NCBI GenBank assembly: GCA_041664585.1
Contig: JBAYKL010000003.1
Span: forward strand, 49,074-113,073
Direction: 5' to 3'
Length of the DNA: 64,000 nucleotides
DNA from: Minisyncoccota bacterium
Lineage (GTDB): Bacteria > Patescibacteriota > Minisyncoccia > Phycocordibacterales > GWA1-40-21
The translations under genes were made by a program, and so were the position numbers. Under the pieces are notes generated by a model. That model saw nothing but the letters and a program-made list of their open reading frames with translations. It was not told the DNA's origin and searched no databases. Positions 16,751 through 59,135 of the stretch are shown here, piece after piece. The number at the start of each line of letters is the position of its first letter. Positions within the stretch are counted from its first letter, which is position 1.

Positions 16751-16790
16751 GGGGTTTGGGCATAGCCCAAACCCCGTCTTTGCTTTATCG
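16751..16790 (+). terminator. rho-independent terminator (first copy of a duplicated element)
   Basis: ggggtttggg-cata-gcccaaacccc hairpin followed by gtctttgcttt. Copy 2 at 21759 has a compensatory stem variant. Confidence 0.6.
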
Positions 16791-17290: not shown

Positions 17291-17776
17291 GCGGCATCTA
17301 TCCTTTCAAATACCTCTATTATGGGAATACAGGGCACTCTTTCTATTCCTTCTGCTTCTCAGGTTGCTACAGGTACAGTATTTGGACCTAATGCTAATGG
17401 AGAAACTATTGGTACTCTTCCTGTCACCGCTCCTGTTCTTCCAGATACCATTAGTGCTTGGTCAGTAGCTAAGTCTACGGGTACTTGGGGTGGAGCTATT
17501 CTATTTTGTAATAATTTGGCAGAAGATGGTGCGAATTGGAGGTTGCCGAAAATAGCAGAACTAGCATTTGCTTTGGAAGAACAATTTAAAAGCAACCCTT
17601 CTTATGTAGATCATGATTTTGCATCGAACTCTGCTTATTGGTCAGGTGTTGAGTCCGATAATAATCCTACAAACGAGGCTTACTACGGTATTTATTATAC
17701 TGATATTAATTACAACCACGTGTACAGTTTTTCTGGCAGTAAGGGTCAAAGTTTTCTCATCCGCTGCGTCCACTAA
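17009..17776 (+). CDS. secreted/anchored DUF1566 (Lcl C-terminal domain)-like protein, paralog A1
   Basis: N-terminal hydrophobic anchor; Ser/Thr-rich linker; conserved W..A..FCNNL.E.G..WRLPK..EL ... YWSG ... RCVH motif block shared with 17788, 22016 and 22744. Confidence 0.6.
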   Translation: MSQKISKSLSKIKKISIYTISAFIVAKLVVFAGNLIPESTPTTSTMVTLGDLYEKITNNSYTASSHPVSTTTSPASTFSTLESIYNAIPDISGNAASILSNTSIMGIQGTLSIPSASQVATGTVFGPNANGETIGTLPVTAPVLPDTISAWSVAKSTGTWGGAILFCNNLAEDGANWRLPKIAELAFALEEQFKSNPSYVDHDFASNSAYWSGVESDNNPTNEAYYGIYYTDINYNHVYSFSGSKGQSFLIRCVH

Positions 17777-17787
17777 TTTTTATATCT

Positions 17788-18513
17788 ATGAAAAACAAAT
17801 TAAAATCATACATACCTAAAATACGCACAATATCTTTATATACGATATCTACTTTTATCGCAGCTAGACTTATAGCTTCAGCCGGTAACTTAGCTCCATC
17901 AGAAGCACCAGCCCCTACTATGGTGACCTTGGATCATTTGTTTAATAAAATTCAGGATAATTATTATTATTTTGGTGATGAACCAAAACTTTCTATTTCT
18001 ACATTATTATCTCCAGCAAACTCTATGCGTACATTGTTGGAAGTATATACTGCTATACCTAGTATCTCTCCAGATACTATTGCTACCGGTACTACTATTA
18101 TGGGCATACCGGGGAATGTGATTATACCGACGGCGAATACGGTGCAGTACGGAGTGCAGTTTGGGGATATGCCTTATAATTATCAAACAGGAACGATTAG
18201 CACGCCAACTAATATATGGTCAAATGCTTCAACAACAGCTAACTGGAATAACGCATTGGTTTTTTGTAATAATCTATCAGAAGGTGGACATGCTTGGAGG
18301 TTGCCGAAGGCGAACGAAATAGTTCAAGGTTTGTCAGAACCAGTTAATGGTTTCGGTCAATATGTGAATGTGTGGTCTGGTACAGATTATGGGGTAGACC
18401 CTTATGATGGCTATGACAAAGCTTTTTTAGGTTCAGTTTTTGCTAATTACACTGAAGCTTACAGCTGGACTGCTTATAAAAATTGGACATTTCATGTCCG
18501 TTGCACCAGATAG
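17788..18513 (+). CDS. secreted/anchored DUF1566-like protein, paralog B1 (Tyr/Asp-rich C-terminus)
   Basis: N-terminus MKNKLKSYIPKIRTISLYTISTFIAARL is 90% identical at DNA level to 22744. Motif LVFCNNLSEGGHAWRLPK. Confidence 0.6.
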   Translation: MKNKLKSYIPKIRTISLYTISTFIAARLIASAGNLAPSEAPAPTMVTLDHLFNKIQDNYYYFGDEPKLSISTLLSPANSMRTLLEVYTAIPSISPDTIATGTTIMGIPGNVIIPTANTVQYGVQFGDMPYNYQTGTISTPTNIWSNASTTANWNNALVFCNNLSEGGHAWRLPKANEIVQGLSEPVNGFGQYVNVWSGTDYGVDPYDGYDKAFLGSVFANYTEAYSWTAYKNWTFHVRCTR

Positions 18514-18924: not shown

Positions 18925-19830
18925 ATGCTTTATTTTATGATAAAGCTGAATCATCTAGAGGTGCTTGAATCCGAAAGCATACATATTATAAGGGAAGCTG
19001 TGGCCACTTTCAAAAATCCAGTGATGATGTATTCAATTGGTAAAGATTCCTCAGTGCTATTACATCTAATGAGAAAGGCGTTTGCTCCTACTAAGATACC
19101 TATACCATTACTTCATGTTGATACCGGATATAAATTTAAAGAAATGATTGATTTTAGGAATAATATTGCAAAAGAGCTTTCTCTTAATCTTATTGTTCGT
19201 AAAAATGAATCAGAGCAGGCAAAATCTTTTAAACCAGAAGAGGCCAATACAGACGAATATATATATCACAAAAAAACAAAGGCTCTTTTAGATGCAATTA
19301 AAGAATTTAATTTTGATGCTGCTTTTGGTGGTGGTAGACGCGACGAAGAAAAATCAAGAGCTAAAGAAAGGATTTTTTCTTTTAGGGATGTAAACAATGT
19401 CTGGAATCCTAAAAAACAGAGACCTGAGCTTTGGAATTTGTATAATACAAAAATAAAACAAGGGGAAACCATGAGGATTTTTCCACTATCAAATTGGACA
19501 GAGCTAGATATTTGGACTTATATAAAACAAGAAAATATTTCTATTGTGCCTTTGTATTTTGCACAAAAAAGAAAAATGCTAAAAAGAAATGGGGTGTTTA
19601 TAAGAGTAGACGAATTTAATATACCAAAAGAAGGGGAAGAGATATTTGAAGATTGGAGTAGATTCAGAACTCTGGGCTGTTCTCCTTCAACAGGTGCTAT
19701 TATTTCTAAAGCTGGTAATCTAGATGAAATTATTGAAGAAATACGTTTGACTCGTTTTTCTGAAAGACAGACAAGAGCAATAGACAACGGTTCAAGTATG
19801 GAAAGTAAAAAGAAACAGGGGTATTTTTAA
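18925..19830 (+). CDS. cysD: sulfate adenylyltransferase subunit 2 (CysD/NodP family)
   Basis: Near-collinear with E. coli CysD: [70 protein letters not shown]. Confidence 0.9.
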
Positions 19831-19841
19831 AAAAATATATT

Positions 19842-21095
19842 ATGGAAAATAAAGAATTTGTTATTGTTGCAACTTCGGGGAGTGTGGATGATGGAAAATC
19901 TACTCTACTAGGGCGTCTTTTGTATGATTGTGATTCTATTTATCAAGATGTTTTGAAAACTCTCAAGAAAGATTATGAATCAGAAGACGTGGTGGTAGAT
20001 AATCTCGCTTATGTTACAGACGGTCTGGAAGCTGAAAGGGAACAGGGTATTACTATTGATGTGGCTTACAAACATTTTTCTCGTACTCACAGAAAATTTT
20101 TGTTGGTAGATGTTCCTGGGCACGAGCAATATACAAGAAATATGATCACCGGAGTGTCTCGTGCAGATGCTGTGGTTATTATGATAGATATGAATTTGGG
20201 TGTTTCAATACAATCCAAGAGACATTTTTTCATTGCCTCAATGTTGGGGGTAAAAAATATTATTTTTGCATTGAACAAAATGGACCTTATGGGTTTTAAG
20301 CAAGAAATTTTTGAAAAAGTAAAAAGCGAATTGGAAGATTATTCTACAAAGCTTAATGTATCTAATTGTATTTTTATCCCTATGTCTGCTAAGTATGGAG
20401 ATATGGTAGTAGCCCGTGGAGAAAGAATGAATTGGTATGAGGGGCCAACACTACTCAGTGTTTTAGAAACATTTTCTTTTTCTGAAGATTTGGGCAGTGA
20501 AGATTTTAGGTTGCCAGTTCAGTGTGTATTAAATGATTCTAATTTTAGGGGTTATGCAGGTAAGGTTGAGGCTGGAGTATTAAATGTTGGCGATAAAGTC
20601 ACAATTGTGCCTTCTGGAAAAAAGACTAGTATAAAAGAGATATATATAGGTTTTGATAAAGTGGAGACGGCTTCAAAGGGCCAATCTATAGCAGTGTCTG
20701 TAAATGATAAACTAGATATTAGTCGCGGGGATATAATAATTGGGGCAGATAATTCTATAGTTCAGTCGAATAATTTGGATGTAATTTTGTTCTGGTTTGA
20801 TGAGAAGTCCTTAAAAGAGGGAAGAGATATTATTTTGAAAAATAACACTAAAGATGTTCGTGGTACCGTTCAGAATATTGAGTACTCTATTGATATGAAT
20901 ACCACACAAAAAATTGAAAAAGTAGGTATTTTGAATCAAAATGATGTGGGTAAGGCTAGTATAAAATTAAACTCTGACATATTTTTTGATACTTACGCAA
21001 AGAATAAAAATATGGGAAGTTTTATTCTGATAGACGATATTACTTATGATACTATTGGAGCGGGTATTATTTTAGGTAAAAAAGATGAAAAATAA
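19842..21095 (+). CDS. cysN: sulfate adenylyltransferase subunit 1, GTPase (CysN/NodQ N-terminal part)
   Basis: SGSVDDGKSTLLGRLL, DVPGHEQY, NKMD GTPase motifs; beta-barrel domains follow. Confidence 0.85.
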   Translation: MENKEFVIVATSGSVDDGKSTLLGRLLYDCDSIYQDVLKTLKKDYESEDVVVDNLAYVTDGLEAEREQGITIDVAYKHFSRTHRKFLLVDVPGHEQYTRNMITGVSRADAVVIMIDMNLGVSIQSKRHFFIASMLGVKNIIFALNKMDLMGFKQEIFEKVKSELEDYSTKLNVSNCIFIPMSAKYGDMVVARGERMNWYEGPTLLSVLETFSFSEDLGSEDFRLPVQCVLNDSNFRGYAGKVEAGVLNVGDKVTIVPSGKKTSIKEIYIGFDKVETASKGQSIAVSVNDKLDISRGDIIIGADNSIVQSNNLDVILFWFDEKSLKEGRDIILKNNTKDVRGTVQNIEYSIDMNTTQKIEKVGILNQNDVGKASIKLNSDIFFDTYAKNKNMGSFILIDDITYDTIGAGIILGKKDEK

Positions 21096-21648
21096 AATTA
21101 AAAAAAACAGCAAAAAAATTAAGAAAAAGAGTGGAGCAGTTCTTTGGCTCACTGGTCTTTCTGGTTCTGGCAAAAGCACGATAGGGGATTCTCTTCATGA
21201 AATTTTGAATAAAAAAGGTATTTCAGCACAAAGGCTCGATGGAGATATTTTAAGAGAGCATTTTGAAAATAAACTAGGTTTTAATAAAGAAGGCAGAGAT
21301 TTGAATATTAAAATATCTGCCTTTACTAGCTCTCTTTTAGAAAAACATGGGGTCATCGTCATTTCTTCTTTTATAAGTCCATATAAACACCAGAGAGATT
21401 TCGCGCGTAATCTTTCTAAAAAATTTATAGAGATACATGTAAATGCTTCTGTTGAGACATGTATCAAAAGGGATACAAAAGGACTCTATAAAAAAGCTCT
21501 CGCAGGAGAGATTAAAAATTTTACTGGTATTTCAGATCCGTATGAAGTTCCAGAAAATCCGCATCTTGTGATTGATACCGATATTTTGAATATCAAAGAT
21601 TCTGTAAAAAAAGTTTTAGATTATTTAACAAAAGAGGGGATAATCTAA
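21085..21648 (+). CDS. cysC: adenylyl-sulfate (APS) kinase
   Basis: VLWLTGLSGSGKSTIG P-loop and the LDGD motif of APS kinase; overlaps the cysN stop by 11 nt. Confidence 0.85.
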   Translation: MKNKIKKNSKKIKKKSGAVLWLTGLSGSGKSTIGDSLHEILNKKGISAQRLDGDILREHFENKLGFNKEGRDLNIKISAFTSSLLEKHGVIVISSFISPYKHQRDFARNLSKKFIEIHVNASVETCIKRDTKGLYKKALAGEIKNFTGISDPYEVPENPHLVIDTDILNIKDSVKKVLDYLTKEGII

Positions 21649-21758: not shown

Positions 21759-21796
21759 GGGGTTTCGCTCCGCGAAACCCCGTCTTTGCTTTATCA
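21759..21796 (+). terminator. rho-independent terminator (second copy; stem differs from copy 1 by compensatory changes)
   Basis: ggggtttcgc-tcc-gcgaaacccc then gtctttgcttt. Confidence 0.6.
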
Positions 21797-22297
21797 AAAT
21801 GAACCATGGTTCATTTCGGTATCTGTCTTTGCGAGCAAAGCGAAGCAAACCATCTCTGGATTGCCACGTCGGCAGACCTCCTAGCAAAGACAGAAAACCT
21901 GTTTCTTGTTTTCTCTTAAGATCATATACTAAATACTTATATTGTATACTCACTAACACTTATCCACACCCCAAAATCCATTGCATCTCACTTTCAAAAA
22001 CTATATAATATACACATGTCACAGAAAATCTCTAAGTATTTTTCTAAAATAAAGAAAATATCCATATACACCATATCTACTTTCATTGTAGCTAAGCTTG
22101 TAGTATTTGCAGGTACTCTTATGCCAGACAGTACCCCAACCACATCAACAATGGTTACATTAGGTGACTTATATGAGAAAATTACAAATAATTCATACAC
22201 AACTTCTTCTCACCCAGTATCTACTACTACCTCACCAGCTTCTACATTTTCTACTCTGGAAAGCATATATGATGCTATACCGGATATAGCTAGGCAG
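21759..22297 (+). repeat. copy 2 of the approximately 540-bp segmental duplication
   Basis: More than 90% identical to 16751-17290; palindrome aaatgaaccatggttcattt at 21796-21815. Confidence 0.85.
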
Positions 22298-22732
22298 GCG
22301 AACTTGATAGATTCAACACATTCTCTTATGGGTGTACAAGGTGCTCTATACATTCCTACAATAAATCAAGTGGCTTCAGGTACACACTTTGGTCCCAATG
22401 GAAGTTTGGTAGGGACACTTTCTGCTGCTGCGGTGGCCTCGGATGAAATTAGTGCTTGGTCAGTAGCTAAATCTTCAGGTACATGGAGTGAAGCCATTCT
22501 GTTTTGTAATAATCTATCAGAAGGTGGACATGCTTGGAGGTTGCCGAAGAGGGCAGAGCTAGAGGGGCTAGTTAATAGTCCATTTTCATCATATACAATT
22601 TATTGGTCAGGTACAGAGGGTTTTATCAATCCCACTCATGCTTATGGCATCTATAGCTACGACTCAGGTTTTTCCGTCAATGCATATAATTATATGAAGA
22701 CGGACGTTCTTGGTGTTGGTTGCGTCCACTAA
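22016..22732 (+). CDS. DUF1566-like protein, paralog A2
   Basis: First 90 aa nearly identical to A1. C-terminal motif block includes a 48-nt stretch identical to B1 (ttttgtaataatctatcagaaggtggacatgcttggaggttgccgaag). Confidence 0.6.
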   Translation: MSQKISKYFSKIKKISIYTISTFIVAKLVVFAGTLMPDSTPTTSTMVTLGDLYEKITNNSYTTSSHPVSTTTSPASTFSTLESIYDAIPDIARQANLIDSTHSLMGVQGALYIPTINQVASGTHFGPNGSLVGTLSAAAVASDEISAWSVAKSSGTWSEAILFCNNLSEGGHAWRLPKRAELEGLVNSPFSSYTIYWSGTEGFINPTHAYGIYSYDSGFSVNAYNYMKTDVLGVGCVH

Positions 22733-22743
22733 TCTACACATCT

Positions 22744-23499
22744 ATGAAAAACAAATTAAAATCATACATACCTAAAATCCGCACAATATCTTTATATACG
22801 ATATCTACTTTTATCGCAGCTAGACTTATAGCTTCAGCTGGTAACCTAGCACCTACAGAAGCTCCAACTCCTACCATGGTAACATTGGACCATCTGTTTA
22901 ATAAAATTCAGAATAATACTTATTCTACAAGTACAGATGAAAAGTTGTCTATTTCAACACTACTATCTCCAGCAAACTCTATGCGCACCTTGCTGGAAGT
23001 ATATACTGCTATACCTAGTATTTCTCCAGATATTATTGCCACTGGTACCACTATTATGGGTATACCTGGGAATGTGGTGATGCCAGATGCAGCGAATGTT
23101 GCTAATGGGGTTGGATTTGGTCCTAGTAATTTTTATGACGATGGCTATGGTGGATTTTATTTTAGTGGTTATCCTTTTGTTGGTGAATTTAAAACATCTC
23201 ATCAGATATGGTCAAACGCTACAGGTAGCGGAAATTGGAATGATGCTATTTTGTTCTGTAATAATTTATCAGAAGGCGGGCATGCTTGGAGGTTGCCTAA
23301 GGATGGTGACTGGGGAGCCATGCACGAACCTTCTTTTCCAGGTAGATATTTTTGGTCTGGTACTGAAGTGAGTGCTGAATACGCTAGAGCATTCGGGATA
23401 TTTGATAGTGGCCAGGGATACTATTATGCTGCTCCATACTCAGATCAGTCGGATAAAGCTGCTGGCTACGGCGTTCGTTGTATAACTAAAACATTGTAA
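22744..23499 (+). CDS. DUF1566-like protein, paralog B2 (Tyr/Asp/Gly-rich C-terminus)
   Basis: ATG at 22744 gives MKNKLKSYIPKIRT..., matching the B1 start; the ORF-track start at 22720 is rejected. Motif ILFCNNLSEGGHAWRLPK. Confidence 0.6.
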   Translation: MKNKLKSYIPKIRTISLYTISTFIAARLIASAGNLAPTEAPTPTMVTLDHLFNKIQNNTYSTSTDEKLSISTLLSPANSMRTLLEVYTAIPSISPDIIATGTTIMGIPGNVVMPDAANVANGVGFGPSNFYDDGYGGFYFSGYPFVGEFKTSHQIWSNATGSGNWNDAILFCNNLSEGGHAWRLPKDGDWGAMHEPSFPGRYFWSGTEVSAEYARAFGIFDSGQGYYYAAPYSDQSDKAAGYGVRCITKTL

Positions 23500-28156: not shown

Positions 28157-28177
28157 TTTATTCTATTTTTGTTCTAG

Positions 28178-28584
28178 TGGAGATGCCGAGAATCGAACTC
28201 GGGTGCAAATGATTGAACTCAATGCTTCTACAAAGTCTAGTTGATTTGTTTCCGTCCGAAGACGAATTTAGGTTTGTAAACTATAAAACAACAAAACATT
28301 TACAAACCGATTCTCTATTTTCGTCACTAGACGAGAAGGCTAGTGATATATTCTGAAAATATTGCACCTCATTCTACCTCTCAGAAGTCAGTAGATGAAA
28401 TGTAGCTTAGGCTAAAGCGTAAGCTAAAGTAAGGTCCTTGGCACCAAAAAATGGTGATACAATTCCCGCTACTTTTTGTGTAAAGCTTTTTGCATTTACA
28501 AGTCCTTGGTAGATTTAGGAGTTCACAAGGTTGCTCCACTTTGCGCAAGAGAGAACGGACCAATTGTCTAGGCCGATCATCCCC
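28178..28584 (-). ncRNA. ssrA: tmRNA (transfer-messenger RNA)
   Basis: Minus-strand 5' end GGGGAUGAUCGGCC. 3' end ...GCACCCGAGUUCGAUUCUCGGCAUCUCCA (T-arm GUUCGAUUC plus acceptor, CCA encoded). Internal tag ORF ...GAKDLTLAYALA-UAA. Immediately downstream of smpB. Confidence 0.85.
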
Positions 28585-37896: not shown

Positions 37897-37983
37897 GGAG
37901 ACGTGTCAGAGTGGTCTAATGTGCCTCTTTGCTAAAGAGGTGGGGTGTAAAAGCCCCCGCTGGTTCGAATCCAGCCGTCTCCG
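37897..37983 (+). tRNA. tRNA-Ser (anticodon GCU)
   Basis: GGAGACG acceptor, D-arm GUCAGAGUGGUCUAAUG, anticodon stem CCUCU/AGAGG with loop UUGCUAA, long variable arm, T-arm GCUGGUUCGAAUCCAGC, discriminator G. Confidence 0.85.
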
Positions 37984-38006: not shown

Positions 38007-38636
38007 ATGATTAGATTACCTAAAATTTATATAGCAAGACATGGACAGGATGAAGATAATTCATTCGGCATTTTGAATGGTCACAGAGATACACAGCTGA
38101 CCGATATTGGAGTAGGACAGGCCGAAGCTTTAGCTAATGCCATAGAAGAAAATAATCTTGGGATAACTAAAATATATTCTTCTCCATTAAAACGTGCATA
38201 TCAAACAGCAGGGATTGTTGCTTCTAAACTTTCTCTTGAGGAACCAGAGGTTTTAGATTTAATCATCGAACGTGATTTTGGAATTATGACTGGTAAACCA
38301 ACAAAAGATATAGAATTGTTATGTTCACCTGAAATAATAAAAACAGACACCATTACCTATTTTTTGTCCCCAGTTAATGCAGAAACATTTCCAGATTTAA
38401 TTAACAGAGCGAAAGAGGTTCTTAGGTTTATAAATTTAAAATGTAATCTATCAGATGTAATTCTTTTGGTATCACACGGTGATATAGGGAAAATGATTTA
38501 TGCAGCTTACTATAATTTAGATTGGAAGGATGTTTTAACAAAATTTCATTTTGGAAATAGCGAGATTATTCTTCTTTCAGAAGACGTTGAGATAAAGGAT
38601 AGATACGTACATAAGGTAGAACAATATAATCTTTAA
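38007..38636 (+). CDS. histidine phosphatase family protein (phosphoglycerate-mutase-like)
   Basis: IYIARHGQ (RHG catalytic motif) and a later SH.G histidine; 209 aa. Confidence 0.65.
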   Translation: MIRLPKIYIARHGQDEDNSFGILNGHRDTQLTDIGVGQAEALANAIEENNLGITKIYSSPLKRAYQTAGIVASKLSLEEPEVLDLIIERDFGIMTGKPTKDIELLCSPEIIKTDTITYFLSPVNAETFPDLINRAKEVLRFINLKCNLSDVILLVSHGDIGKMIYAAYYNLDWKDVLTKFHFGNSEIILLSEDVEIKDRYVHKVEQYNL

Positions 38637-38686: not shown

Positions 38687-39220
38687 ATGGGTTTAATAGA
38701 AACAAAAGAAAAAGGTTTTACTCTGATAGAGCTTTTGGTAGTAATAGCTATAATTGCAATGCTGAGCTCTGTTGTTATGGCCGGTTTTAGTGATACTAAA
38801 CAGAAGGGTAGAGATGCTGCTAGAGTAAGGGCCTTACAGGAGGTGAGAAGCGCTTTGCAACTTTATGCTACTGATAAGGGAGGGTTTCCTCCGGGTACCA
38901 ATATATTAGGATCTTCTAATTTATTAACTGAACTTGCGGTAAACAATAAATACATAGCGTCTGTTGATTCTAGTCTAAGATATAGCGGAGTAAATTCCGA
39001 TGGAACTTATTGTAATCCGTCAGTATATACAGTGTGCTCTGGGTACCATATTGGAATAGCCCTAGAAAGAAGAGACAGTGGTGTTTTAGTGAATGACAGT
39101 AACTCAATTCTGCCAACTGGTAGTGGTCCAGGCACAGCGGTGATAGGAACAAATGATACTTGTGGGCCTGCTGGTGTAGTCGGAGGCACCCCAGTATTGT
39201 GCTATGATATTTTACAGTAA
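38687..39220 (+). CDS. type IV pilin-like protein (class III signal KG|FTLIELLVVIAII)
   Basis: Prepilin cleavage motif G|FTLIEL with Glu at +5; hydrophobic N-terminal helix; C-terminal Cys pair. Confidence 0.8.
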   Translation: MGLIETKEKGFTLIELLVVIAIIAMLSSVVMAGFSDTKQKGRDAARVRALQEVRSALQLYATDKGGFPPGTNILGSSNLLTELAVNNKYIASVDSSLRYSGVNSDGTYCNPSVYTVCSGYHIGIALERRDSGVLVNDSNSILPTGSGPGTAVIGTNDTCGPAGVVGGTPVLCYDILQ

Positions 39221-39224
39221 TTTC

Positions 39225-39782
39225 ATGTTTTATAATAAAAGAAAGAATGGTTTTACTCTAATAGAGCTTTTAGTTGTTATATCTATAATCGGCCTACTCT
39301 CCACAGTCATCTTGGCTAGTCTAACGAGCGCAAGGAAAAAGGCTCAAGCTACAAAATTTGTTGCTGATATGAATCAACTCAAAACAGCTTTTGAATTGTA
39401 TAGGAATGACAATGGTCAGTATCCTTTTGAAGATAGACAAATAGGTACTGAAGCCGACGAGATATCACATCTCTCTTTGACAACCAATTTACCGGGCGCT
39501 AGTGGGAAGGGTCTTAATGATGAATTAGTCACGAATAAATACATAAGTTCTATTCCTAATATTTCTCAGTGTCCAACTGTATGTGATTTGAGAGTCACAG
39601 TAACTCCAGAGGATTATGGTTATATTACAAAAAAAGAATTACTCGGTGGTACCGATACCTCTTATCATTGTGGTGGTGTTATTTTTAAAAATTATTTATT
39701 TTATGTCGGTAATAATCAGATAAGTCCGAATTATCCGCACCTTGGTGGGGGCTACGACAATTATTATTGTTTTGGTCAGTAA
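39225..39782 (+). CDS. type IV pilin-like protein (paralog of 40826 and 41378)
   Basis: MFYNKRKNG|FTLIELLVVISIIGLL; start at 39225 chosen over 39204 because it lies after the upstream stop; ends ...YYCFGQ. Confidence 0.8.
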   Translation: MFYNKRKNGFTLIELLVVISIIGLLSTVILASLTSARKKAQATKFVADMNQLKTAFELYRNDNGQYPFEDRQIGTEADEISHLSLTTNLPGASGKGLNDELVTNKYISSIPNISQCPTVCDLRVTVTPEDYGYITKKELLGGTDTSYHCGGVIFKNYLFYVGNNQISPNYPHLGGGYDNYYCFGQ

Positions 39783-39821
39783 TATGTTTAGTTTTCCAAA
39801 AATTAGTTTATAATACATTGT

Positions 39822-40475
39822 ATGTCCGTAGAGTTCGACCAGAAAAATATGTTTTTGAAAAAAAGTAAAGGTTTCACCCTCATAGAACTTCTAGTGGTTA
39901 TTTCAATAATTGGTTTGTTATCTACTGTAGTCATGGCTGGTATGCAAACCGCTAGGCAAAGAGCAAAGAATTCTTATGTAACTGCTTCAATAAAATCTTA
40001 CATAACTGCATTAAAGGGTTATTATGCAGATCATGGAGGGTACCCAGCTAATTATGGAGACGGTTGTGAGTGGGCGGCATATTATTATATTGGATTAGGA
40101 AAAACAGACTATCAAGCATTAGGGGGACATTTTTGCTCGTATATTGATTCGAATTACTTTTTAGACCAACTTTCGCCGTACCTTTCTTCTCTGGATGATC
40201 CTAGTCCGTATGAGAATCCAAAGCCTTATAATGATATCCATAACGTTATCTATTGGAACAGGAAGGGCGCAGGATTTGTTTGCGAAGATAAACAAACAAA
40301 CCTTTACTGTTCTAAGGGTAAAATTGTTTGGGTTATTGATACAACTATAGATAAAAATGTTAATTGTGGGGATGTGGGTGGTGGAAGTAATTCTATGCCG
40401 GCTGAAGATTTACAAAATATTTTTGGTATGGATTTGAAAAATTACGTTTATCACTACTGTTATTTAAATATTTAG
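39822..40475 (+). CDS. type IV pilin-like protein with a long leader (MSVEFDQKNMFLKKSKG|FTLIEL)
   Basis: Prepilin motif. The N-terminal MSVEFDQKN is conserved at protein level with gene 40491, so the 39822 start is probably used; the alternative start is 39849. Confidence 0.7.
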   Translation: MSVEFDQKNMFLKKSKGFTLIELLVVISIIGLLSTVVMAGMQTARQRAKNSYVTASIKSYITALKGYYADHGGYPANYGDGCEWAAYYYIGLGKTDYQALGGHFCSYIDSNYFLDQLSPYLSSLDDPSPYENPKPYNDIHNVIYWNRKGAGFVCEDKQTNLYCSKGKIVWVIDTTIDKNVNCGDVGGGSNSMPAEDLQNIFGMDLKNYVYHYCYLNI

Positions 40476-40490
40476 TGATATAATAATTTT

Positions 40491-40826
40491 ATGTCTATCG
40501 AATTTGATCAAGAAAATAGTTTTAATAAAACTTTTAGCAAAGCCTATTCAAAAAGTGGTGATTCTAAGATAGTCGCATATCTTATTAAAAAGAGGTTTGC
40601 CAAGAATGAAAAACAAGCAAATATGATTTTGCTTGGTATTGCTGTCTTGTGTATTTTATTAACTCTTTCTATTATTAAAACTACAGTCTATCCTGCATCG
40701 GCACCAGTATCACAAAGGACTCGAGAGATTTCTCAAACGATGTCAGAGTACAGAAAAGCCGGTTTACCGTTATCAGAAATAAGAAAAAGGATTGCTGAGG
40801 ATATTCAGTCTGGAAAGATAAAGTAA
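40491..40826 (+). CDS. small membrane protein sharing the MS(V/I)EFDQ(K/E)N N-terminus with the upstream pilin
   Basis: 111 aa, one TM helix, no G|F cleavage motif. Confidence 0.5.
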   Translation: MSIEFDQENSFNKTFSKAYSKSGDSKIVAYLIKKRFAKNEKQANMILLGIAVLCILLTLSIIKTTVYPASAPVSQRTREISQTMSEYRKAGLPLSEIRKRIAEDIQSGKIK

Positions 40827-41371
40827 TGTTTAAGGTAAAGGTAAAAAATAATAGAGGTTTCACCCTCATCGAGCTTTTAGTTGTTATATCTATAATCGGT
40901 CTACTATCCACAGTCGTCTCGGCTAGTCTAACGAGTGCAAGAAAAAAAGCTGAAGCTGCAAAATTTCTTGCAGAAATGGATCAGTTCAAAAAGGCTTTAG
41001 AATTATACAGAACTGATAATGGAATATATCCAGGAGAGCCTGATTATATGGCCTGTTGGATGGGCCCAGGCTCGGTTTGTTCTAAGAACGTTGCTACCTA
41101 TTTAAAAGAAGAATTGGTGGATAAAAAGTACATCCCGGCATTACCACAAGTGAGTAGGTTTGATGATTCGGAATATTATGCTGGGATAACTAACTTGGAT
41201 TTTATGGACTCAGGTGTAAATTATAAAACAGTTTGTGGTGGTAGGTATCTAAAATCATACATGGTTGATTTTTATTATGAAAATATTCCAACTCAAGATT
41301 TTCCTAAATTTTCATATATTATAAATGGGATAGAGTGGCCAATGGGTGACAGGTATTGTTTAGGAGAATAA
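40826..41371 (+). CDS. type IV pilin-like protein
   Basis: RG|FTLIELLVVISIIGLLSTVVSASLTSARKKAEAAKF; ends ...RYCLGE. Confidence 0.8.
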   Translation: MFKVKVKNNRGFTLIELLVVISIIGLLSTVVSASLTSARKKAEAAKFLAEMDQFKKALELYRTDNGIYPGEPDYMACWMGPGSVCSKNVATYLKEELVDKKYIPALPQVSRFDDSEYYAGITNLDFMDSGVNYKTVCGGRYLKSYMVDFYYENIPTQDFPKFSYIINGIEWPMGDRYCLGE

Positions 41372-41377
41372 TTATTT

Positions 41378-41920
41378 ATGAAAACAAAAAGACAAAAAGG
41401 TTTTACATTGATAGAGTTACTGGTTGTTATTTCAATAATAGGTTTATTGTCTACGGTCGTTTTGGCTAGTCTAACGAGTGCAAGAAAAAAAGCTGAAGCT
41501 GCAAAATTTGTTGCGGAGATGAAACAATTAAAAACAGCTTTTGAATTGTATAGGAATGACAACGGAGGTTATCCTGGCGGATTAAATTTTGATAGTTGTT
41601 ATCCTTTATCTGGATCTTGCCAAGATGCAAAAATATTTTTAATAAATGAATTAGTTAATAAAAAATATATTCAGTCCGTACCCCAAATAGACAATTTTAA
41701 TGAATTTTATTATTCGGCCGGTGCAACTCTGGATCAGACTATTGGGCAAACAAGATGGCAGCAAATTTGCGGAGGCAGGGCTTTAAAAGCATGGGGACTT
41801 TTCTTTGTATATCCAAATATACCAATAAACGATTTTGATGTTTGGGAAGCTTATGTTTATGAAAATGGACAATATCAAGGCTCAAATACCTTCGATGGTT
41901 TTTATTGTATTGGGGAGTAG
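41378..41920 (+). CDS. type IV pilin-like protein
   Basis: KG|FTLIELLVVISIIGLLSTVVLASLTSARKKAEAAKF; ends ...FYCIGE; 5' 170 nt about 85-90% identical to 39225 and 40826. Confidence 0.8.
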   Translation: MKTKRQKGFTLIELLVVISIIGLLSTVVLASLTSARKKAEAAKFVAEMKQLKTAFELYRNDNGGYPGGLNFDSCYPLSGSCQDAKIFLINELVNKKYIQSVPQIDNFNEFYYSAGATLDQTIGQTRWQQICGGRALKAWGLFFVYPNIPINDFDVWEAYVYENGQYQGSNTFDGFYCIGE

Positions 41921-41921
41921 A

Positions 41922-42584
41922 CTAATGCCCTAAAGCAAATCCAATTACTTTTTTTGTCCCAGCTTCTTCGAGTGCTTGGCGAGCTTCTTTCATGGTTGCC
42001 CCAGTAGTAATCACATCATCTATTAATATTATATTTTTACCTTTTATTCTTTCTTTGTCTACATAAAAACATCCATCCAAATTTTTTAATCTTTGCATTT
42101 TATTTTTTGTTTTTGCTTGGTGCTTAGTTTCTTTTATTTTTTTTAAAGCTTTAAAATCTGTTGAGAAATTTTCCCCACCATCTATTTTTATAAGTTCTTT
42201 TATGATGAGTTCGCATTGATTATATCCTCTTTCTCTCAGATTCTCTTTGCTTGTTGGTATTGGTACAAGGATGGGGGATTGAAAATTATTAAAAAGCAAT
42301 TCGTCGCCAATTTCTTCCAATATGAAATCGTATAGGGCTTTCGAAAACTTTTCTAAAATCCCTTTGTTCTTCTTATATTTTATTTCCCATATAGCTTGTT
42401 TTACAATTTTATTTTTATATTGGAAAAGAGCTTTGAATTTAGGGTTATTTGTCTCAGCGGCTTTTGGTAGTTCCCTTACTATATATTCAGAATTAAGGTT
42501 TTCTATTTCAAGAATCTTTTCTTCTTTTGGTAACAAAATGGAGAGTATCGTCTCAAATATTTTTTTAATTCCTTGCAGTATCAT
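41922..42584 (-). CDS. comF: ComF/GntX-family phosphoribosyltransferase-domain competence protein
   Basis: C-terminal PRTase motif NIILIDDVITTGATM. Confidence 0.7.
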   Translation of the reverse strand: MILQGIKKIFETILSILLPKEEKILEIENLNSEYIVRELPKAAETNNPKFKALFQYKNKIVKQAIWEIKYKKNKGILEKFSKALYDFILEEIGDELLFNNFQSPILVPIPTSKENLRERGYNQCELIIKELIKIDGGENFSTDFKALKKIKETKHQAKTKNKMQRLKNLDGCFYVDKERIKGKNIILIDDVITTGATMKEARQALEEAGTKKVIGFALGH

Positions 42585-50150: not shown

Positions 50151-50561
50151 ATGAATAAAAAAGGTTTTACATTGATTGAGCTTTTGGTGGTTATCGCCAT
50201 CATTGGTATTCTATCTTCAGTCGTTCTTGCTTCATTGAATTCAGCTAGATCAAAAGGATCAAATGCTGCTATAAAGTCTAGTTTGGCTAACATGAGAGCA
50301 CAGGCAGAAATGTATTATGACGGTACAGGTGCAGGAACATATGGTGCATCTAATGCTTTGTGTACAGATGCTGCTTCTGGTATAAAAAATATGGTTGATT
50401 CAGTTAAAGGAATGTCAACTGCTGTTACATGTACTAGCGACGCTAGCTCATGGGCTGTGTCTGCTTTGTTGAAAGATGCAACAACATGGTGTGTTGATTA
50501 CACTGGCAAATCTGCAACAACAACAGGTATCGCTTCCTCAACTCCGTTTAAATGTAGCTAA
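50151..50561 (+). CDS. pilA: major type IV pilin candidate (short, own promoter and terminator)
   Basis: MNKKG|FTLIELLVVIAIIGIL; 136 aa; C-terminal Cys pair C...C; strong extended -10 (tgtataat) promoter upstream and terminator downstream. Confidence 0.75.
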   Translation: MNKKGFTLIELLVVIAIIGILSSVVLASLNSARSKGSNAAIKSSLANMRAQAEMYYDGTGAGTYGASNALCTDAASGIKNMVDSVKGMSTAVTCTSDASSWAVSALLKDATTWCVDYTGKSATTTGIASSTPFKCS

Positions 50562-50647: not shown

Positions 50648-52132
50648 ATGATAAAAATCACTAAACAAATTTTACTCCTCATTATTGTTATTTTAATAAT
50701 CATTGGCTTCTATTTTGGTTATAATTATTTTATAGATAGCAAATTAAGATCTGATGCAAAAAGACTTTCGGAGAGGGAATTATATATTAATACAAAGTTT
50801 GGTGGTTTGGTTGATAAAACAAAGATGACAGAAGGTTTTTGGTATACGGTAAAGGATCAATATGGCAATGAAAGCATAGCCTTTTTTGATCCTAGCGCTT
50901 TGGCTGGAAGTGATCTTACCCAAGAAGAGATAGACATGATCTACGGTCAGGTAAAAAGCTCTGAGATTTCAGATAAGAATCGATATGAAGTGGTTCCGGA
51001 AGAAAAATTATCGGAAAATATGCAATTTTATAATTCAGTCCTTTCTTCTCCTGTGTCACAAAATGAAAATCAGTATGTGGATATAAAAAAGAATCTAATT
51101 TCTCTTTTTAAAAATGGGAATGCTACCAAAGACGATCTCATCCAGCTTGCTTATATTTATGAGTTAGAGGGTAAATATTCAGACAAGGATTTAATTAATA
51201 AAAAAATATGTGCATCTTTTAAAATTAGATGTACTCAAGATTTGCAAATAGAGATAAGGGGTTATGTAAAAGATTCTCGTGGCTGGCTTGTTCAAAATGC
51301 AAAAGTTGATGTTCTAAGTGATGATAATGCGTCATCTGTTTTGACAAATGAAAATGGTGCATATTTGATAAAGATGAAAGCGAATGAATTACAAAAGATT
51401 CGTTTAAAAGTCACAAAAAAGGGATATTCTGATGGTATTGTTAGCCTTCAGGTTTTGTATAAAGAGCAAAAGAAATATCAAGCAGAAGATGCGGTAATTA
51501 AAAATGCCAACTATCAATTTACTTTAGATACAAAAAAGAGGACAATAACTGGTGATGACAATAAAATAGAAGGGGATACGGCAATTGTGAAAACCTCTCA
51601 AAGCACATACTCGATACCTTTAAATGTATTTTTTGATAAAAATGGAAATTATTTTAGTGGGCAGGTTGAGATTGTGGCTTATGAATTTACTAGAGAAACT
51701 GTACCTGTAAGTATTATGGCGGTAGATACTTTTGACACCGTTCGAGGATACGCTGGGAATCTTATGCAAACCTTTGGTATGCCATATATACAGTTCTATG
51801 ACAAAGATGGGGGAGATTTGTTTGTAAGAAAAAGCTCACCGATTAAACTTATTTACAAAATGTATCATATGGAAGATCTATATTCTGGCGATACAAACAT
51901 ATATGAACCAGTTACAGAAAAGGATGTTTCCGAGATGATTACTTATTGTAAAAATAGTAAGGAAGAGTATCCAATTACGAGAGAGTTTTTGATTGAAAAT
52001 CGACTTCTTAAGTTCCCAGCATGGTGGATTTTTGACCAAAGTAAAGGGGTTTGGGACAATATTGGCTACAAATTACTCGATTCAAGTGGAACGATAGAAA
52101 CCATCTTCTATACAATTAAAGATGTGGTATAA
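50648..52132 (+). CDS. hypothetical 494-aa protein with N-terminal TM anchor, inside the pilus locus
   Basis: Single N-terminal TM (ILLLIIVILIIIGFYF), large extracytoplasmic domain, no recognised motif. Confidence 0.5.
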   Translation: MIKITKQILLLIIVILIIIGFYFGYNYFIDSKLRSDAKRLSERELYINTKFGGLVDKTKMTEGFWYTVKDQYGNESIAFFDPSALAGSDLTQEEIDMIYGQVKSSEISDKNRYEVVPEEKLSENMQFYNSVLSSPVSQNENQYVDIKKNLISLFKNGNATKDDLIQLAYIYELEGKYSDKDLINKKICASFKIRCTQDLQIEIRGYVKDSRGWLVQNAKVDVLSDDNASSVLTNENGAYLIKMKANELQKIRLKVTKKGYSDGIVSLQVLYKEQKKYQAEDAVIKNANYQFTLDTKKRTITGDDNKIEGDTAIVKTSQSTYSIPLNVFFDKNGNYFSGQVEIVAYEFTRETVPVSIMAVDTFDTVRGYAGNLMQTFGMPYIQFYDKDGGDLFVRKSSPIKLIYKMYHMEDLYSGDTNIYEPVTEKDVSEMITYCKNSKEEYPITREFLIENRLLKFPAWWIFDQSKGVWDNIGYKLLDSSGTIETIFYTIKDVV

Positions 52133-52172
52133 TTATTAGTAAGGTTTAATTTATTAATTTTAATATTTAAGT

Positions 52173-53234
52173 ATGAATTTTTATTCAAAAAAATCTAAGG
52201 TTGGTATTTTGTTTATTTTAGTTTTAATTATTATTTTGGCTGTCGCAGGCTTCTTTATTGCTAGACAATATACAAAAGCAAATACTGATTATATTTGTAC
52301 CAAGGTAACTTATGGTGCGTGTGTTATTGATAATACTCAAACACAGAGTAATTTTTCCTGTGTTGATGGGAAATATCAAAGAACTGTAAACGGAATCAAG
52401 TCTATAGCCAACACTTCATTCGCTTGGAGAAGAACTTCTTGCCCTACCAGTGATTATAAAAGCACGGTGCGTGGTAGCTCCAAGGGTGCTTCTGGTTTAA
52501 TTGGTTCAGAAAATGTTTCTGTTGAATATCAGAGCTGTCAGTTTATAGAATATGGTGATTCTTGTGGCGGTGGAGGCAGGACCAGCTGTGTTCCTAAAGA
52601 AGGGGAGTATTTAAATAGTAATGGAGAATGTGTTGCTGTTTCACCTGTAGATTTATGTCCAAACATCCTAGATGGTAAAATTCATAATCAAGCTTATATA
52701 GCTTCAAGTTCTTTGGTTTACAATCCAATAGAGAATAAATGTGATCCAAAAGATACTGATGTTTGTAGTAACCCTGGTATCCAAAGAACAATGCTCGGAT
52801 TCACTTGGAGGGATGGAGCCGGATATTGCCACACAGAGGCTTCTGAGGTTGAGGATAAAAATATTGTTATGGATATAAATTGTTCTACGAATAATGGTCA
52901 GACATGGAATGATTGTTCGAGAGTTGTGCTAGCTTCAAGAAGTCAACCTATAAAATTAAGGCCAATAATAGGTGGAATTATTGACAAAAATGGTCAATAT
53001 GAATGGTTTGATCCATCTAAGGCAGGGCAACCAATTGCATATTTCGATGGTATTGACCCATCAGAAATATCTAACATTGTAAAACCCCTTATGAATCTTA
53101 AGCTTGATACAAAAACCAGGTTTACTAAAGATGTTAGTTTAAAATTTGTTGACAGCAACAATGGAAAATATAATACTTTCACAAAGGCGATTAATATTGT
53201 AATTGCTTCTCAAGATGTCATTATAGAAAGATAA
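52173..53234 (+). CDS. hypothetical 353-aa Cys-rich extracytoplasmic protein with N-terminal TM anchor, inside the pilus locus
   Basis: N-terminal TM; about 20 Cys residues in the exported domain. Confidence 0.5.
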   Translation: MNFYSKKSKVGILFILVLIIILAVAGFFIARQYTKANTDYICTKVTYGACVIDNTQTQSNFSCVDGKYQRTVNGIKSIANTSFAWRRTSCPTSDYKSTVRGSSKGASGLIGSENVSVEYQSCQFIEYGDSCGGGGRTSCVPKEGEYLNSNGECVAVSPVDLCPNILDGKIHNQAYIASSSLVYNPIENKCDPKDTDVCSNPGIQRTMLGFTWRDGAGYCHTEASEVEDKNIVMDINCSTNNGQTWNDCSRVVLASRSQPIKLRPIIGGIIDKNGQYEWFDPSKAGQPIAYFDGIDPSEISNIVKPLMNLKLDTKTRFTKDVSLKFVDSNNGKYNTFTKAINIVIASQDVIIER

Positions 53235-53812: not shown

Positions 53813-54610
53813 GTGATTTTATTTAATACACTTTTATTTTTTATATTTGGTGCGATCATAGGGAGTTTTTTGAATGTTGTTGTTCTGAGATATAACACGG
53901 GTTGTTCTTTTGTGAAGGGAAGATCCAAGTGTTTTTCTTGTTCCAAAGAGCTTTCATGGTATGAACTCGTGCCGATTTTTAGTTTTTTATTTTTAAAAGG
54001 TAGATGTTTTGGTTGCAAGAGTAAAATCTCTATTCAATATCCACTTGTAGAATTTATTACTGGTGTACTTTTTTCCTTTGTTTTTCTAAAGTTTGGTTTT
54101 GATACTTTTTTGCCAGCATACTTATTTATTACAGCCTTGCTTGTAGCAATGGCCATATATGATTTTATGCACAAAATTATTCCAGATGGAATGGTTTTTG
54201 TATTTGATCTGTTGGCACTTATTTTGGTTTTTATGAAGACTGGTTTTATCAGTTCTTTTCAAATGCCGGGCTTTCTTAATTTATTTGCAGGAATAGTCTT
54301 ATTTGCTTTCTTCGGTGGTCTCTGGCTTGTTTCTTCTGGTAAATGGATGGGGTTTGGTGATGCCAAGCTTTCCCTCGGTATCGGATGGCTTCTTGGTATG
54401 TCTGGAGGTATTTTTTCTATAATGTTGGCTTTCTGGATTGGAGCTATATTTAGTATAGTTTTACTTATTTTAGAGAAGTTGAATTTATCCAATAAAAAGC
54501 TTACAATTAAAAGTGAAATACCTTTTGCCCCGTTTATAATATTTGCTTTTTTCATTGAATTTTTATTGGGCTGGGGCTCGGTTTATGTTGGTTATTTATT
54601 TAATTTTTAA
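53813..54610 (+). CDS. pilD: prepilin peptidase (A24 family) PilD
   Basis: N-terminal Zn-binding CxxC...CxxC (CFSCSKE...CFGCKSK), 8 TM, DxxxG catalytic-region pattern (MGFGDAKL). Confidence 0.8.
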   Translation: MILFNTLLFFIFGAIIGSFLNVVVLRYNTGCSFVKGRSKCFSCSKELSWYELVPIFSFLFLKGRCFGCKSKISIQYPLVEFITGVLFSFVFLKFGFDTFLPAYLFITALLVAMAIYDFMHKIIPDGMVFVFDLLALILVFMKTGFISSFQMPGFLNLFAGIVLFAFFGGLWLVSSGKWMGFGDAKLSLGIGWLLGMSGGIFSIMLAFWIGAIFSIVLLILEKLNLSNKKLTIKSEIPFAPFIIFAFFIEFLLGWGSVYVGYLFNF

Positions 54611-55279
54611 ATGATAAAAAAGAACCTTAAAAAAATAAATTCGGCCGGGTTTACTCTTGTAGAGCTTTTGGTCACTCTTTCTATTTTTGCTGTTACTACT
54701 GGTATCGTTATGACAAGTCAGGGTAAGTTTGATAATAGTATTTTACTTACAAATACAGCATATGATATAGCTCTTACTTTGCGTCAGGCGCAGACTTTTG
54801 GAGTTAACGTAAAAGAGGGTTCTGGTAATGCTTCCAGTAAATTTAATCCATATGGGGTTGTTTTTAATAATTCAGTAAAAACAAGATTTGATCTTTTCGA
54901 AGACCTTCCGGGCGGTAGCGGGGGTAGTAATTATAGATATAAATATGATGGTAATTTTATATGTGTGACTAATGTAGACTTAGAATGTGTTAGCGGCTTT
55001 AAGATTAAAAGAGGACATTATGTAAAATCAATTTCTATTTATGATAATGCTGGAGCATCTTCATCTGTTGACGTTTTGAATATAAGTTTTATTAGACCTA
55101 ATCCTGAGGCAATAATAGTGGCAGATGTTGGAGCCAATATTGGAAGTTATAATCCAGCTCTTCCATCGGCTTTCTTTAATTTACCAAAATCTGCAGAGAT
55201 TGTTATCTCTTCTGCTGATAATTCAGCAACAAGAACTATAATAGTAACCAAAGTAGGACAAATTTATGTTAAAAGATAA
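54611..55279 (+). CDS. minor pilin (GspH/FimT-like)
   Basis: AG|FTLVELLVTLSIFAV prepilin motif. Confidence 0.7.
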   Translation: MIKKNLKKINSAGFTLVELLVTLSIFAVTTGIVMTSQGKFDNSILLTNTAYDIALTLRQAQTFGVNVKEGSGNASSKFNPYGVVFNNSVKTRFDLFEDLPGGSGGSNYRYKYDGNFICVTNVDLECVSGFKIKRGHYVKSISIYDNAGASSSVDVLNISFIRPNPEAIIVADVGANIGSYNPALPSAFFNLPKSAEIVISSADNSATRTIIVTKVGQIYVKR

Positions 55280-55943
55280 TTCAAAATTTAATAAGGGTTT
55301 TACTTTAGTCGAAATGCTCGTTGCCATTGCTGTTTTTATGATTGTTATGACAGTAGCTGTCGGTTCTCTGGTTTCAATAATAGATGCTAATAGAAAAGCT
55401 CAGGCAATAAAAAATGTTGTTAATAATATAAATTTTGCTTTGGAAAGTATTTCAAAGGATATGAGAGTTGGAACAAATTTCTTCTGTTTGACTAACGCGT
55501 TATATAATAATGGAACTTATACAAGTGGAGAGTATGTTAATGATGAAGATGCTTGTAAGATTGGTTCTGTTGGGGTTGGATATAAGAAGGAGAAAAACAA
55601 GTACGTTTATTATAGATTTTTTCCTGGAGACAGTAGTGTTTTAGGAGAGAAGGGTAATATTAGAAAATGTGTCAGCTCCAGTTTTCCAGATTGTAATGAT
55701 TGGGAAAGTATTACTGCACCAGCTTACAATGTTCAAATTACAAGTATGAAGTTCTATGTCTTAGGTGCCGATACTCTTTTTGATGCTGCTGGTGTCTATA
55801 CCAATAAGTCAAAGACTCAAGATTCATGGAGACAACCAAGGGTTATAATTGCCTTGGAAGGGACAGCTGGTATTAAGGATAATGTGAAAACAACTTTCAA
55901 TATTCAAACAACTGTTTCTCAGAGAATAAGAGAAATACATTAA
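55266..55943 (+). CDS. minor pilin (PilW-like)
   Basis: KG|FTLVEMLVAIAVFMIV prepilin motif. Confidence 0.7.
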   Translation: MLKDNSKFNKGFTLVEMLVAIAVFMIVMTVAVGSLVSIIDANRKAQAIKNVVNNINFALESISKDMRVGTNFFCLTNALYNNGTYTSGEYVNDEDACKIGSVGVGYKKEKNKYVYYRFFPGDSSVLGEKGNIRKCVSSSFPDCNDWESITAPAYNVQITSMKFYVLGADTLFDAAGVYTNKSKTQDSWRQPRVIIALEGTAGIKDNVKTTFNIQTTVSQRIREIH

Positions 55944-55946
55944 TAT

Positions 55947-56537
55947 ATGTTATATGTAAAAAATAAAAAAAGAATAGAAGGGTTTACGTTAGTGGAGTCA
56001 CTTGTTGCTATTTCTATTTTGATGGTTGCTATCGTTGCCCCTATGACAATCGCTCAGAAAGGTCTAGGCTCTGCTTCATATTCTAAAGATCAGATGACCG
56101 CATCTTTTTTGGCTCAAGATGCGATTGAGTTTATAAAAAACAAGAGAGATGAGATTGGTTTGAGGAAGGTTGCTGTTAAAGCAGATCCGATTGACGCTGA
56201 ATGGCTTGGGAGTAACTCGGCTTTGATTTTGTTGGACATTTATAATAAGTGTCTAAATCAAACATGTTATGTTGATACTGTGATTGAGAATATAAGTAAT
56301 ACTCCTAGTAACGTCTATTTAATCAGAAATTCTTCAGATCATAGTTTTATCTATTACGGTAATCAAAATTCAAATTCTGGTTACGAATCAGAACTATCTA
56401 AATTCAAAAGAGAGGTAACCGTGAAATATCCTGCATCTAGTAGTTTGGACGAAGCCCTTATCACAGTCAAAGTATCTTGGCCAGGTGAAACGATCACTGT
56501 TCAAAGCTTTATTTATAATTACTGGGAAAACCTATAG
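55947..56537 (+). CDS. minor pilin (PilV/GspI-like)
   Basis: EG|FTLVESLVAISILMVA prepilin motif. Confidence 0.7.
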   Translation: MLYVKNKKRIEGFTLVESLVAISILMVAIVAPMTIAQKGLGSASYSKDQMTASFLAQDAIEFIKNKRDEIGLRKVAVKADPIDAEWLGSNSALILLDIYNKCLNQTCYVDTVIENISNTPSNVYLIRNSSDHSFIYYGNQNSNSGYESELSKFKREVTVKYPASSSLDEALITVKVSWPGETITVQSFIYNYWENL

Positions 56538-56539
56538 AT

Positions 56540-59135
<2,596 letters not shown>

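Follow-up and report, generated by a model that had tools for sequence, protein, structure and literature searches.

The 64-kb stretch of a Minisyncoccota genome considered here (contig JBAYKL010000003.1, positions 49,074 to 113,073 of the forward strand; hereafter the window, whose GC content is 35%) carries at 38687-41920, on the + strand, five prepilin genes with one small non-pilin gene (40491-40826) among them. Three of the prepilin genes, which start at 39225, 40826 and 41378 and are called A, B and C below, constitute one lineage-specific pilin family of Candidatus Paceibacterota (Patescibacteria/CPR), and they are part of the pilin array that lies upstream in a complete type IV pilus locus. 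It is easy to see in such a tandem, with similar 5′ ends and dissimilar 3′ halves, a device for varying a pilus. Indeed, the initial annotation, made from the sequence alone, proposed recombination-mediated pilin variation, or several pilus types or specificities. How should this arrangement be read? We consider it highly probable that the three genes belong to a normal family of complete type IV prepilins, in which a conserved stem bears distinct and stable heads and one machine serves all of them, and that no programmed switching takes place. The feature is genuine and its biology ordinary, a further multi-pilin type IV pilus array of a sort already reported. It is to be noted that the array also includes two more pilin genes (38687-39220 and 39822-40475) and the non-pilin gene, which the earlier claim left out. 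The array is made up as follows.

38687-39220, + strand: pilin gene 1, 177 aa, a separate pilin family with leader MGLIETKEKG and C-terminal LCYDILQ; PF07963 E 1.1e-08
39225-39782, + strand: focal pilin A, 185 aa, with an 'A-type' head (CPTVC, NYP, YCFGQ); PF07963 E 8.6e-09
39237-39425, + strand: conserved 5′ block, copy A, of direct-repeat family D1, with mosaic sites and 80-81% identity to copies B and C
39822-40475, + strand: pilin gene 3, 217 aa, six Cys, with a head family of its own; PF07963 E 1.5e-08
40491-40826, + strand: orf111, a small bitopic membrane protein, non-pilin, without Pfam match
40826-41371, + strand: focal pilin B, 181 aa, C-terminal YCLGE; PF07963 E 3.9e-09
40844-41032, + strand: conserved 5′ block, copy B, of the direct-repeat family, holding the 46-nt run 40921-40966
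41378-41920, + strand: focal pilin C, 180 aa, C-terminal YCIGE, starting 6 nt after pilin B
41387-41575, + strand: conserved 5′ block, copy C, of the direct-repeat family

All five pilin genes of the array match the N_methyl profile PF07963 above its gathering score, with E-values of 1e-8 to 1e-9, and all five encode a K/R-rich leader and the motif K/R-G|FTLIELLVVI with Gly(-1) and Glu5, within a hydrophobic segment of about 20 aa. The lollipop fold, a long N-terminal helix on a head of antiparallel β-sheet, was found for the type IV pilins, and copy A of the 5′ block runs from the last leader codons over the class III signal peptide into the α1 helix, through ..YRNDNG. Every copy is complete, with start codon, leader, Gly(-1) and the full α1 helix. 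The class III signal peptide and the α1 stem are encoded by the first ~175-190 nt shared by the genes, and this 5′ part is supposed to be kept in every subunit because cleavage by the prepilin peptidase PilD, seating in the membrane and packing in the filament core require it.

How much DNA identity remains to be explained beyond this constraint? The block aligns without gaps over 189 nt in the three genes at 80-81% identity, and counted over 174 nt from the Gly(-1) codon the focal pairs are 78-82% identical. A value of 85-90% over the first 170 nt had been put forward, and it proved too high; 90-92% is reached in 60-nt sub-blocks only. The near-identical stretch noticed between B and C is there, as 46 nt that agree exactly (40921-40966 and 41464-41509), and no match to it appeared in shuffles of the window. 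Past nt ~175-190, ungapped identity between the focal genes falls to 23-35%, the random level. When codons for the observed proteins are drawn at random according to the codon usage of the window, the expected DNA identity of the focal pairs is 70-74% as against the 78-82% observed, an excess of 6-12 points (z 2.2-4.6). None of the other pilin pairs tested, among them those that involve a fourth family member on another contig of the same metagenome-assembled genome, is clearly in excess (z -0.1 to 1.8). The other two array pilins are 54-60% identical to the focal genes over the 5′ stretch, and for the gene at 38687 the 54-56% found over the 5′ 174 nt equals the codon-usage expectation. Over the same stretch, family members of other genomes and the fourth member are 66-77% identical to the genes in the window (83% for one partial gene). 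As the simulation alone gives 70-74% and other genomes give 66-77%, constraint on the signal peptide and α1 in an AT-rich genome explains most of the 5′ identity. The 5′ ends are therefore conserved far above random, as had been claimed, yet most of this conservation was to be expected from protein sequence and codon usage. The identity of the stem would come mainly from selection and AT-rich codon usage, and the remainder from a few old gene-conversion tracts.

As for the 3′ halves, the earlier statement that they diverge completely is true for DNA and false for protein. The C-terminal halves of B and C share 34-35% of their amino acids (E 1e-15 to 1e-16), the head of A shares 27-29% with the other two (E 8e-5 and 0.013-0.033), and the framework of the family alignment, ELVxxKYI, CGG and C-terminal YCxGE, is kept. 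The shared Cys motif at the C-terminus was correctly noticed: YC[FLI]G[QE] stands at the end of each of the three proteins. Each protein has four Cys, whose positions suggest two pairs; one pair would join the CGG strand to the YCxGE end, and judging from these paired positions there are probably two disulfides per head. A-type heads are also found in other genomes (P0007, P0019 and P0020). When the head of C alone was searched with phmmer against 1.84 billion representatives, it found itself, the cluster of B, P0003 and a spurious repeat protein, P0160. Because such a search gives almost no matches, the heads are supposed to diverge fast over long times.

Are these heads hypervariable between close strains? 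The comparison rests on two short Logan contigs, L001, which is collinear with 39988-41416 at 89.8% DNA identity, and L002, which is collinear with 39113-40032 at 87.8%. The orthologue of B (P0002) is 91% identical in amino acids, with a ratio of nonsynonymous to synonymous substitution rates (dN/dS) of 0.078 in the 3′ half; that of A (P0011) is 93% identical, with a 3′-half dN/dS of 0.15; and the C-terminal part of 39822 gives 0.054 against L001. The paralogs compared each have their own same-head orthologue in the same gene order, and the order of orf111, B and the next pilin is kept in L001 and in a more distant contig, L168, where the 6-nt spacing is found again. With 91-93% amino acid identity and dN/dS of 0.05-0.15, the heads compared are under purifying selection and stable between close strains, so that the word 'hypervariable' does not fit them. 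The 3′ halves would be old diverged heads, each held by purifying selection, and distinct heads conserved in this way suggest different binding surfaces.

Sequence has nevertheless moved between the copies. The 5′ part has 47 polymorphic sites, and agreement among them is clustered: A equals B at nt 9-62, B equals C at nt 80-102, and A equals C at nt 111-161. When the order of sites is permuted, the longest runs have p = 0.006 (A and B), 0.004 (B and C) and 0.0004 (A and C), and the number of pattern switches has p = 0.0007. In the first block (nt 9-62) the signal is purely synonymous, because the three proteins are identical there. In agreement with this patchwork, the neighbour-joining tree of the N-terminal parts pairs C with A, and that of the heads pairs C with B. 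The patchy excess indicates gene conversion between the paralogs, inside the conserved 5′ part. The same block mosaic is present in the L001 and L002 orthologues and the conversions are thus older than the strain split. Conversion in the 5′ part homogenises the copies and does not diversify them.

Could such exchange nevertheless belong to a program? In Neisseria, the silent pilin copies are without promoter and 5′ coding part, and conserved DNA segments lie within the variable region. If antigenic or phase variation of the pilE/pilS type operated here, one expressed pilin would take head sequence from its neighbours non-reciprocally, in a process initiated in the 5′ region. Like the Neisseria system, the window has clustered pilin-related sequences and gene conversion between copies; three blocks of ~190 nt in the same orientation, about 80% identical and with 46 nt identical in two of them, could offer homology, and the mosaic is statistical evidence that sequence has moved. 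Against this, the pattern is the reverse of the Neisseria one: the 5′ part is shared, the heads have no DNA in common, and complete copies bear stable heads. In the 64-kb window tblastn and blastn find full genes only, with no 5′-truncated, partial or silent head copies, hence no expression locus accompanied by promoterless truncated cassettes. No DNA segments able to guide an exchange are shared in or beside the 3′ halves (no blastn matches, and the random ungapped identity given above), so that past nt ~190 there is no homology in which to resolve it, save roughly 15 partly matching nt in the stop region. No G-quadruplex motif (G3+N1-7 four times) exists on either strand of the window, upstream of the pilins or elsewhere, and neither A/T runs of at least 8, G/C runs of at least 6 nor short tandem repeats were found in or between the pilin genes. 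In two related strains 10-12% apart in DNA the heads covered, those of A, B and 39822, and their order are unchanged under purifying selection, and the conversion tracts are confined to the conserved part and older than the strain split. We therefore give a pilE/pilS-like system hardly any credence.

Another precedent is inversion. In the R64 pilV shufflon and in Moraxella tfpQ/tfpI with Piv, segments are inverted at short inverted recombination sites, and a dedicated recombinase is required. These systems resemble the window in having one conserved pilin 5′ part with alternative 3′ parts. In the window, in contrast, the genes are complete and all direct on the + strand, no meaningful inverted repeats were found (those present are short, AT-rich and imperfect), and no recombinase domain was found in the scanned neighbouring proteins. 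As complete copies with no cassettes in the 64-kb window, no meaningful inverted repeats, no recombinase among the neighbouring proteins scanned, and neither G-quadruplex nor repeat tracts go together with conserved heads and with old conversion limited to the 5′ part, the recombination-mediated variation that was first suggested is unsupported. A diversity-generating retroelement was considered separately and rejected: the window-wide repeat scan gave no template/variable-repeat pair for the heads, and no reverse transcriptase was found among the open reading frames scanned near the largest repeat of the window, the one on either side of cysDNC-like genes.

If the array does not switch, what are its products used for? 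Downstream of it lie the other parts of the locus, listed below; L165 denotes the corresponding locus of another genome, GCA_964841735.1.

41922-42584, - strand: ComF-like phosphoribosyltransferase (PF00156 and PF15610), convergent with pilin C and at the same position in L165
42656-49896, + strand: pilus machinery, with PilM, PilN-like, PilO, an unknown gene, PilB, a response regulator, PilT and PilC, by Pfam matches
50151-50561, + strand: short pilin, 136 aa, just after PilC, with leader MNKKG, 49% Gly/Ala/Ser/Thr and four Cys; PF07963 E 1.4e-09
53813-54610, + strand: prepilin peptidase PilD (PF06750 E 9e-31, and PF01478)
54611-57109, + strand: four pilin-like genes (54611, 55266, 55947 and 56540) directly after PilD, with PF07963 in three and pilin-like N-termini in four

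A cognate prepilin peptidase and the assembly machinery are thus present, and the array adjoins the PilMNO, PilB, PilT, PilC and PilD genes; it therefore makes up the upstream, pilin-bearing end of a full type IV pilus locus. The four genes directly after PilD are probably the core minor-pilin set. The last of them (56540) has the non-canonical N-terminus GFAMLFAV, without Glu5. Between the short pilin and PilD there are two large proteins and then another pilin-like gene. The two large proteins (50648-53234), one of 494 aa with a CarboxypepD_reg-like match that is weak and below threshold and the other Cys-rich and of 353 aa, both have an N-terminal hydrophobic segment, and they may be pilus-associated adhesins.

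In the normal pilin family that we prefer, the array would be expressed from three putative transcription units, namely 38687 with 39225, 39822 alone, and orf111 with 40826 and 41378, every copy probably being expressed. The start of A lies 4 nt after the end of the 38687 gene, with which it is probably co-transcribed, and a GGAG at 41363-41366 stands 9-12 nt 5′ of the start codon of C. A single PilD would process all the prepilins, and a single PilB/PilC/PilMNO machine would receive them. The array pilins would then be alternative or accessory subunits that give one common stem a choice of surfaces, and they would probably serve to bind host cells or substrates, while the short pilin at 50151 probably makes the bulk of the filament. 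We lean to this accessory or alternative role since 50151 is small and rich in Gly/Ala/Ser/Thr, as major pilins are (49% vs 25-29%), and by this composition it is the best candidate for the major subunit.

It is also conceivable that the paralogs build separate homopolymeric pili, each paralog being the major subunit of one of them, and that the one machine makes these pili in different circumstances, in the manner of the wide and narrow pili of Thermus thermophilus. The α1 of the focal genes resembles that of major pilins and GspG and is unlike that of minor pilins; three putative transcription units could be separately regulated, a response regulator is encoded inside the machinery operon, and a minor-pilin set exists separately at 54611-57109. 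The window has, on the other side, one PilB, one PilC and one PilT, the genes for B and C are 6 nt apart and probably co-transcribed, and the major-pilin profile fits 50151 better than it fits the array. Distinct filaments are unlikely in our view. The second half of the earlier suggestion, several pilus types or specificities, fits everything seen and comes close to the explanation given here, as something we infer.

Another layer of the array's history is seen in its gene content. A degenerate 31-nt core of the conserved block gave no match in an exact-pattern scan of metagenome contigs, and a generic GFTLIELLV search of genome and metagenome collections gave mostly distant N-terminal matches, with no close relatives among the matches listed; the close relatives were found through protein look-ups. 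In L165 the order is MgtC ... pilin177 - orf111 - A-type pilin - orf105 - pilin187 - ComF - PilM..., that is, three pilins and two small open reading frames as against five pilins and one small open reading frame in the window, and an orthologous 177-aa pilin holds the position of 38687. A related genome, L166, has orf110, a pilin that bears LamG, and a pair of younger paralogs, whose 5′ parts are 83% identical and whose heads are ~50% identical in amino acids with a dN/dS of 0.33. The L166 array opens (6710-7849) with this 379-aa pilin, which carries a Laminin_G_3 domain and is thus modular with a lectin-like head, comparable to the modular minor pilins PilB and PilC of S. sanguinis. The fourth family pilin of the window's own genome, at 10001-10549 of contig L003 (locus-tag prefix WC229; WC229_03590), stands with its own orf111 paralog (9664-9999) alone beside rpoB/rpoC, far from the pilus machinery genes.

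The small gene orf111 accompanies the family closely. Its stop overlaps the start of B (TAATG), and at all inspected loci members of its family lie directly upstream of a YCIGE-family pilin, with stop and start overlapping or 1-2 nt apart: in the window (40491-40826), L003 (9664-9999), L165 (3826-4161 and 4699-5016), L166 (7992-8324), L001 (504-839) and L168 (3-215). Homologues number 32 among 5.8 billion proteins, and several further ones are on contigs that also bear a family pilin. Conserved parts are the cytoplasmic N-terminus, M[SP]VEFDQENxFN ... LIKKGxAKNEKQAN, and the C-terminal tail. The AF2 model is all-helical with one long transmembrane helix (pLDDT 76) and gives no functional clue. 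By this constant neighbourhood in the sequences, orf111 qualifies as a conserved partner of YCIGE-family pilins. The pilin gene 39822 took its beginning from such a partner: its TATAAT-like box and first ~9 codons (MSVEFDQKN), at 39783-39870 of the window, have their homologues in the promoter and 5′ end of orf111-family genes, the closest match being orf105, which follows the A-type pilin in L165. In a strain variant of 39822 (P0125) a longer orf111-like leader stretch, MSVEFGQENCFTKIFNRTTKKNK, precedes GFTLIELL, so that the leader has 23 residues there and 17 in the window. From this homology and the longer stretch in P0125, 39822 is explained as the product of a deletion by which the 5′ end of an orf111-like gene became joined to a pilin gene. 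An internal Met of 39822 (MFLKKSK-G) could be an alternative start, in the window strain only. The differing array contents, the lone pair on L003 and the 39822 fusion fit birth-and-death evolution of a gene family, in which the array would alter over evolutionary time by duplication, deletion and fusion.

Can more be read into orf111? One might suppose that orf111 and its pilin constitute an undescribed two-gene module, in which orf111 is a dedicated insertion, targeting or regulatory partner, and that the ~190-nt blocks now and then delete, duplicate or reassort such modules from strain to strain, which would alter the heads shown and with them the host range of these epibiotic bacteria. Within this proposal, orf111 may be translationally coupled to the pilin, and the M[SP]VEFDQEN peptide may have been captured as the long leader of 39822. 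We regard the proposal as decidedly unlikely.

Several points weigh against the reading of a normal pilin family with stable heads. Neither of the two Logan contigs reaches the head of C. Co-assembly, and 50151 as the major pilin, are things that we infer. A promoter and terminator scan found no more sites than in shuffled sequence and is therefore uninformative on transcription units; the three units were drawn from the distances between genes and from TATAAT-like boxes read by eye. Finally, between A and its orthologue the synonymous divergence (dS) is 0.47 in the 5′ part vs 0.14 in the 3′ part, and some 5′ exchange may thus postdate the shared mosaic.

This last value would also suit ongoing concerted evolution, in which the 5′ ends would stay similar through frequent present-day conversion, and heads would continually be lost or doubled in populations by unequal crossing-over. 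The excess of synonymous identity and the mosaic site pattern point the same way, as do the different array contents of the window and L165 and the fusion nature of 39822. Yet the mosaic is common to orthologues and so is old, identity of the 5′ parts within a genome (0.78-0.82 in the window, 0.80 in L168, 0.74 in L165) is barely above that between genomes (0.66-0.83), and the fusion junction of 39822 lies outside the 5′ homology block. Concerted evolution that is still going on is, on this balance, very unlikely.

Some other observations were made in and around the array. The Rfam scan found no RNA family within it. Recent horizontal transfer of the array is not indicated, its base composition being that of its surroundings. 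Upstream, a histidine phosphatase gene (38007-38636) sits between an 87-nt tRNA (37897-37983, + strand) and the array, and it is absent at the syntenic position of L165. A tmRNA gene is at 28175-28584 (- strand). Farther away, two Lcl_C (PF07603/DUF1566) proteins, 16769-18513 and 21775-23499, 86-98% identical in DNA, ~5 kb apart and in direct orientation, flank CysD-, CysN- and CysC-like sulfate activation genes (18925-21648).

How does the locus compare with pilin arrays already described? For Ca. Paceibacteria (UBA5633 clusters), the part of the literature drawn on here reports multiple pilin genes clustered beside pilBCDMT (PMC9763046), and for Saccharibacteria pilins it reports that N-terminal features are kept and C-terminal domains diverged, with small, highly expressed pilins as major subunits (PMC11623550). 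As in these Patescibacteria loci, including T4P-1 and T4P-2 of Nanosynbacter lyticus TM7x, prepilins of the window are clustered with pilB, pilC, pilD, pilM and pilT; as far as the same excerpts describe them, those loci also share with it conserved N-termini, diverged heads, a small candidate major pilin beside larger accessory ones, and a presumed role in host attachment (PMC9763046; PMC11623550). On the other hand, the family of ~180-aa CGG...YCIGE pilins and its orf111 partner are not named in those parts of the two papers, and the locus in the window is known from sequence alone. Outside this group, S. sanguinis has two tandem major pilins, PilE1 and PilE2, 78% identical over their full length, which form one heteropolymeric filament (PMC6497953). 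Here too there are adjacent full-length paralogs with identical or near-identical N-termini, one PilD and one machine, and, as in S. sanguinis, the paralogs would not be functionally equivalent. Unlike PilE1 and PilE2, the heads in the window are 27-35% identical, and the match is one of genetic arrangement only.

Here, we have gone through a pilin array whose appearance invites the idea of variation. Conserved 5′ ends followed by divergent 3′ ends in tandem pilins are the default architecture of the family and no sign of programmed variation. What tells the two apart is whether copies are complete or truncated, whether heads share DNA homology, whether orthologues are conserved among strains, and what identity is to be expected once codon usage is taken into account. 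The orf111 family, with its few members among billions of proteins, is a modest lead for Paceibacterota pilus biology. Type IV pili are the best candidates for the means by which Patescibacteria find and hold their hosts, and several stable heads on one conserved stem hint at several binding specificities.

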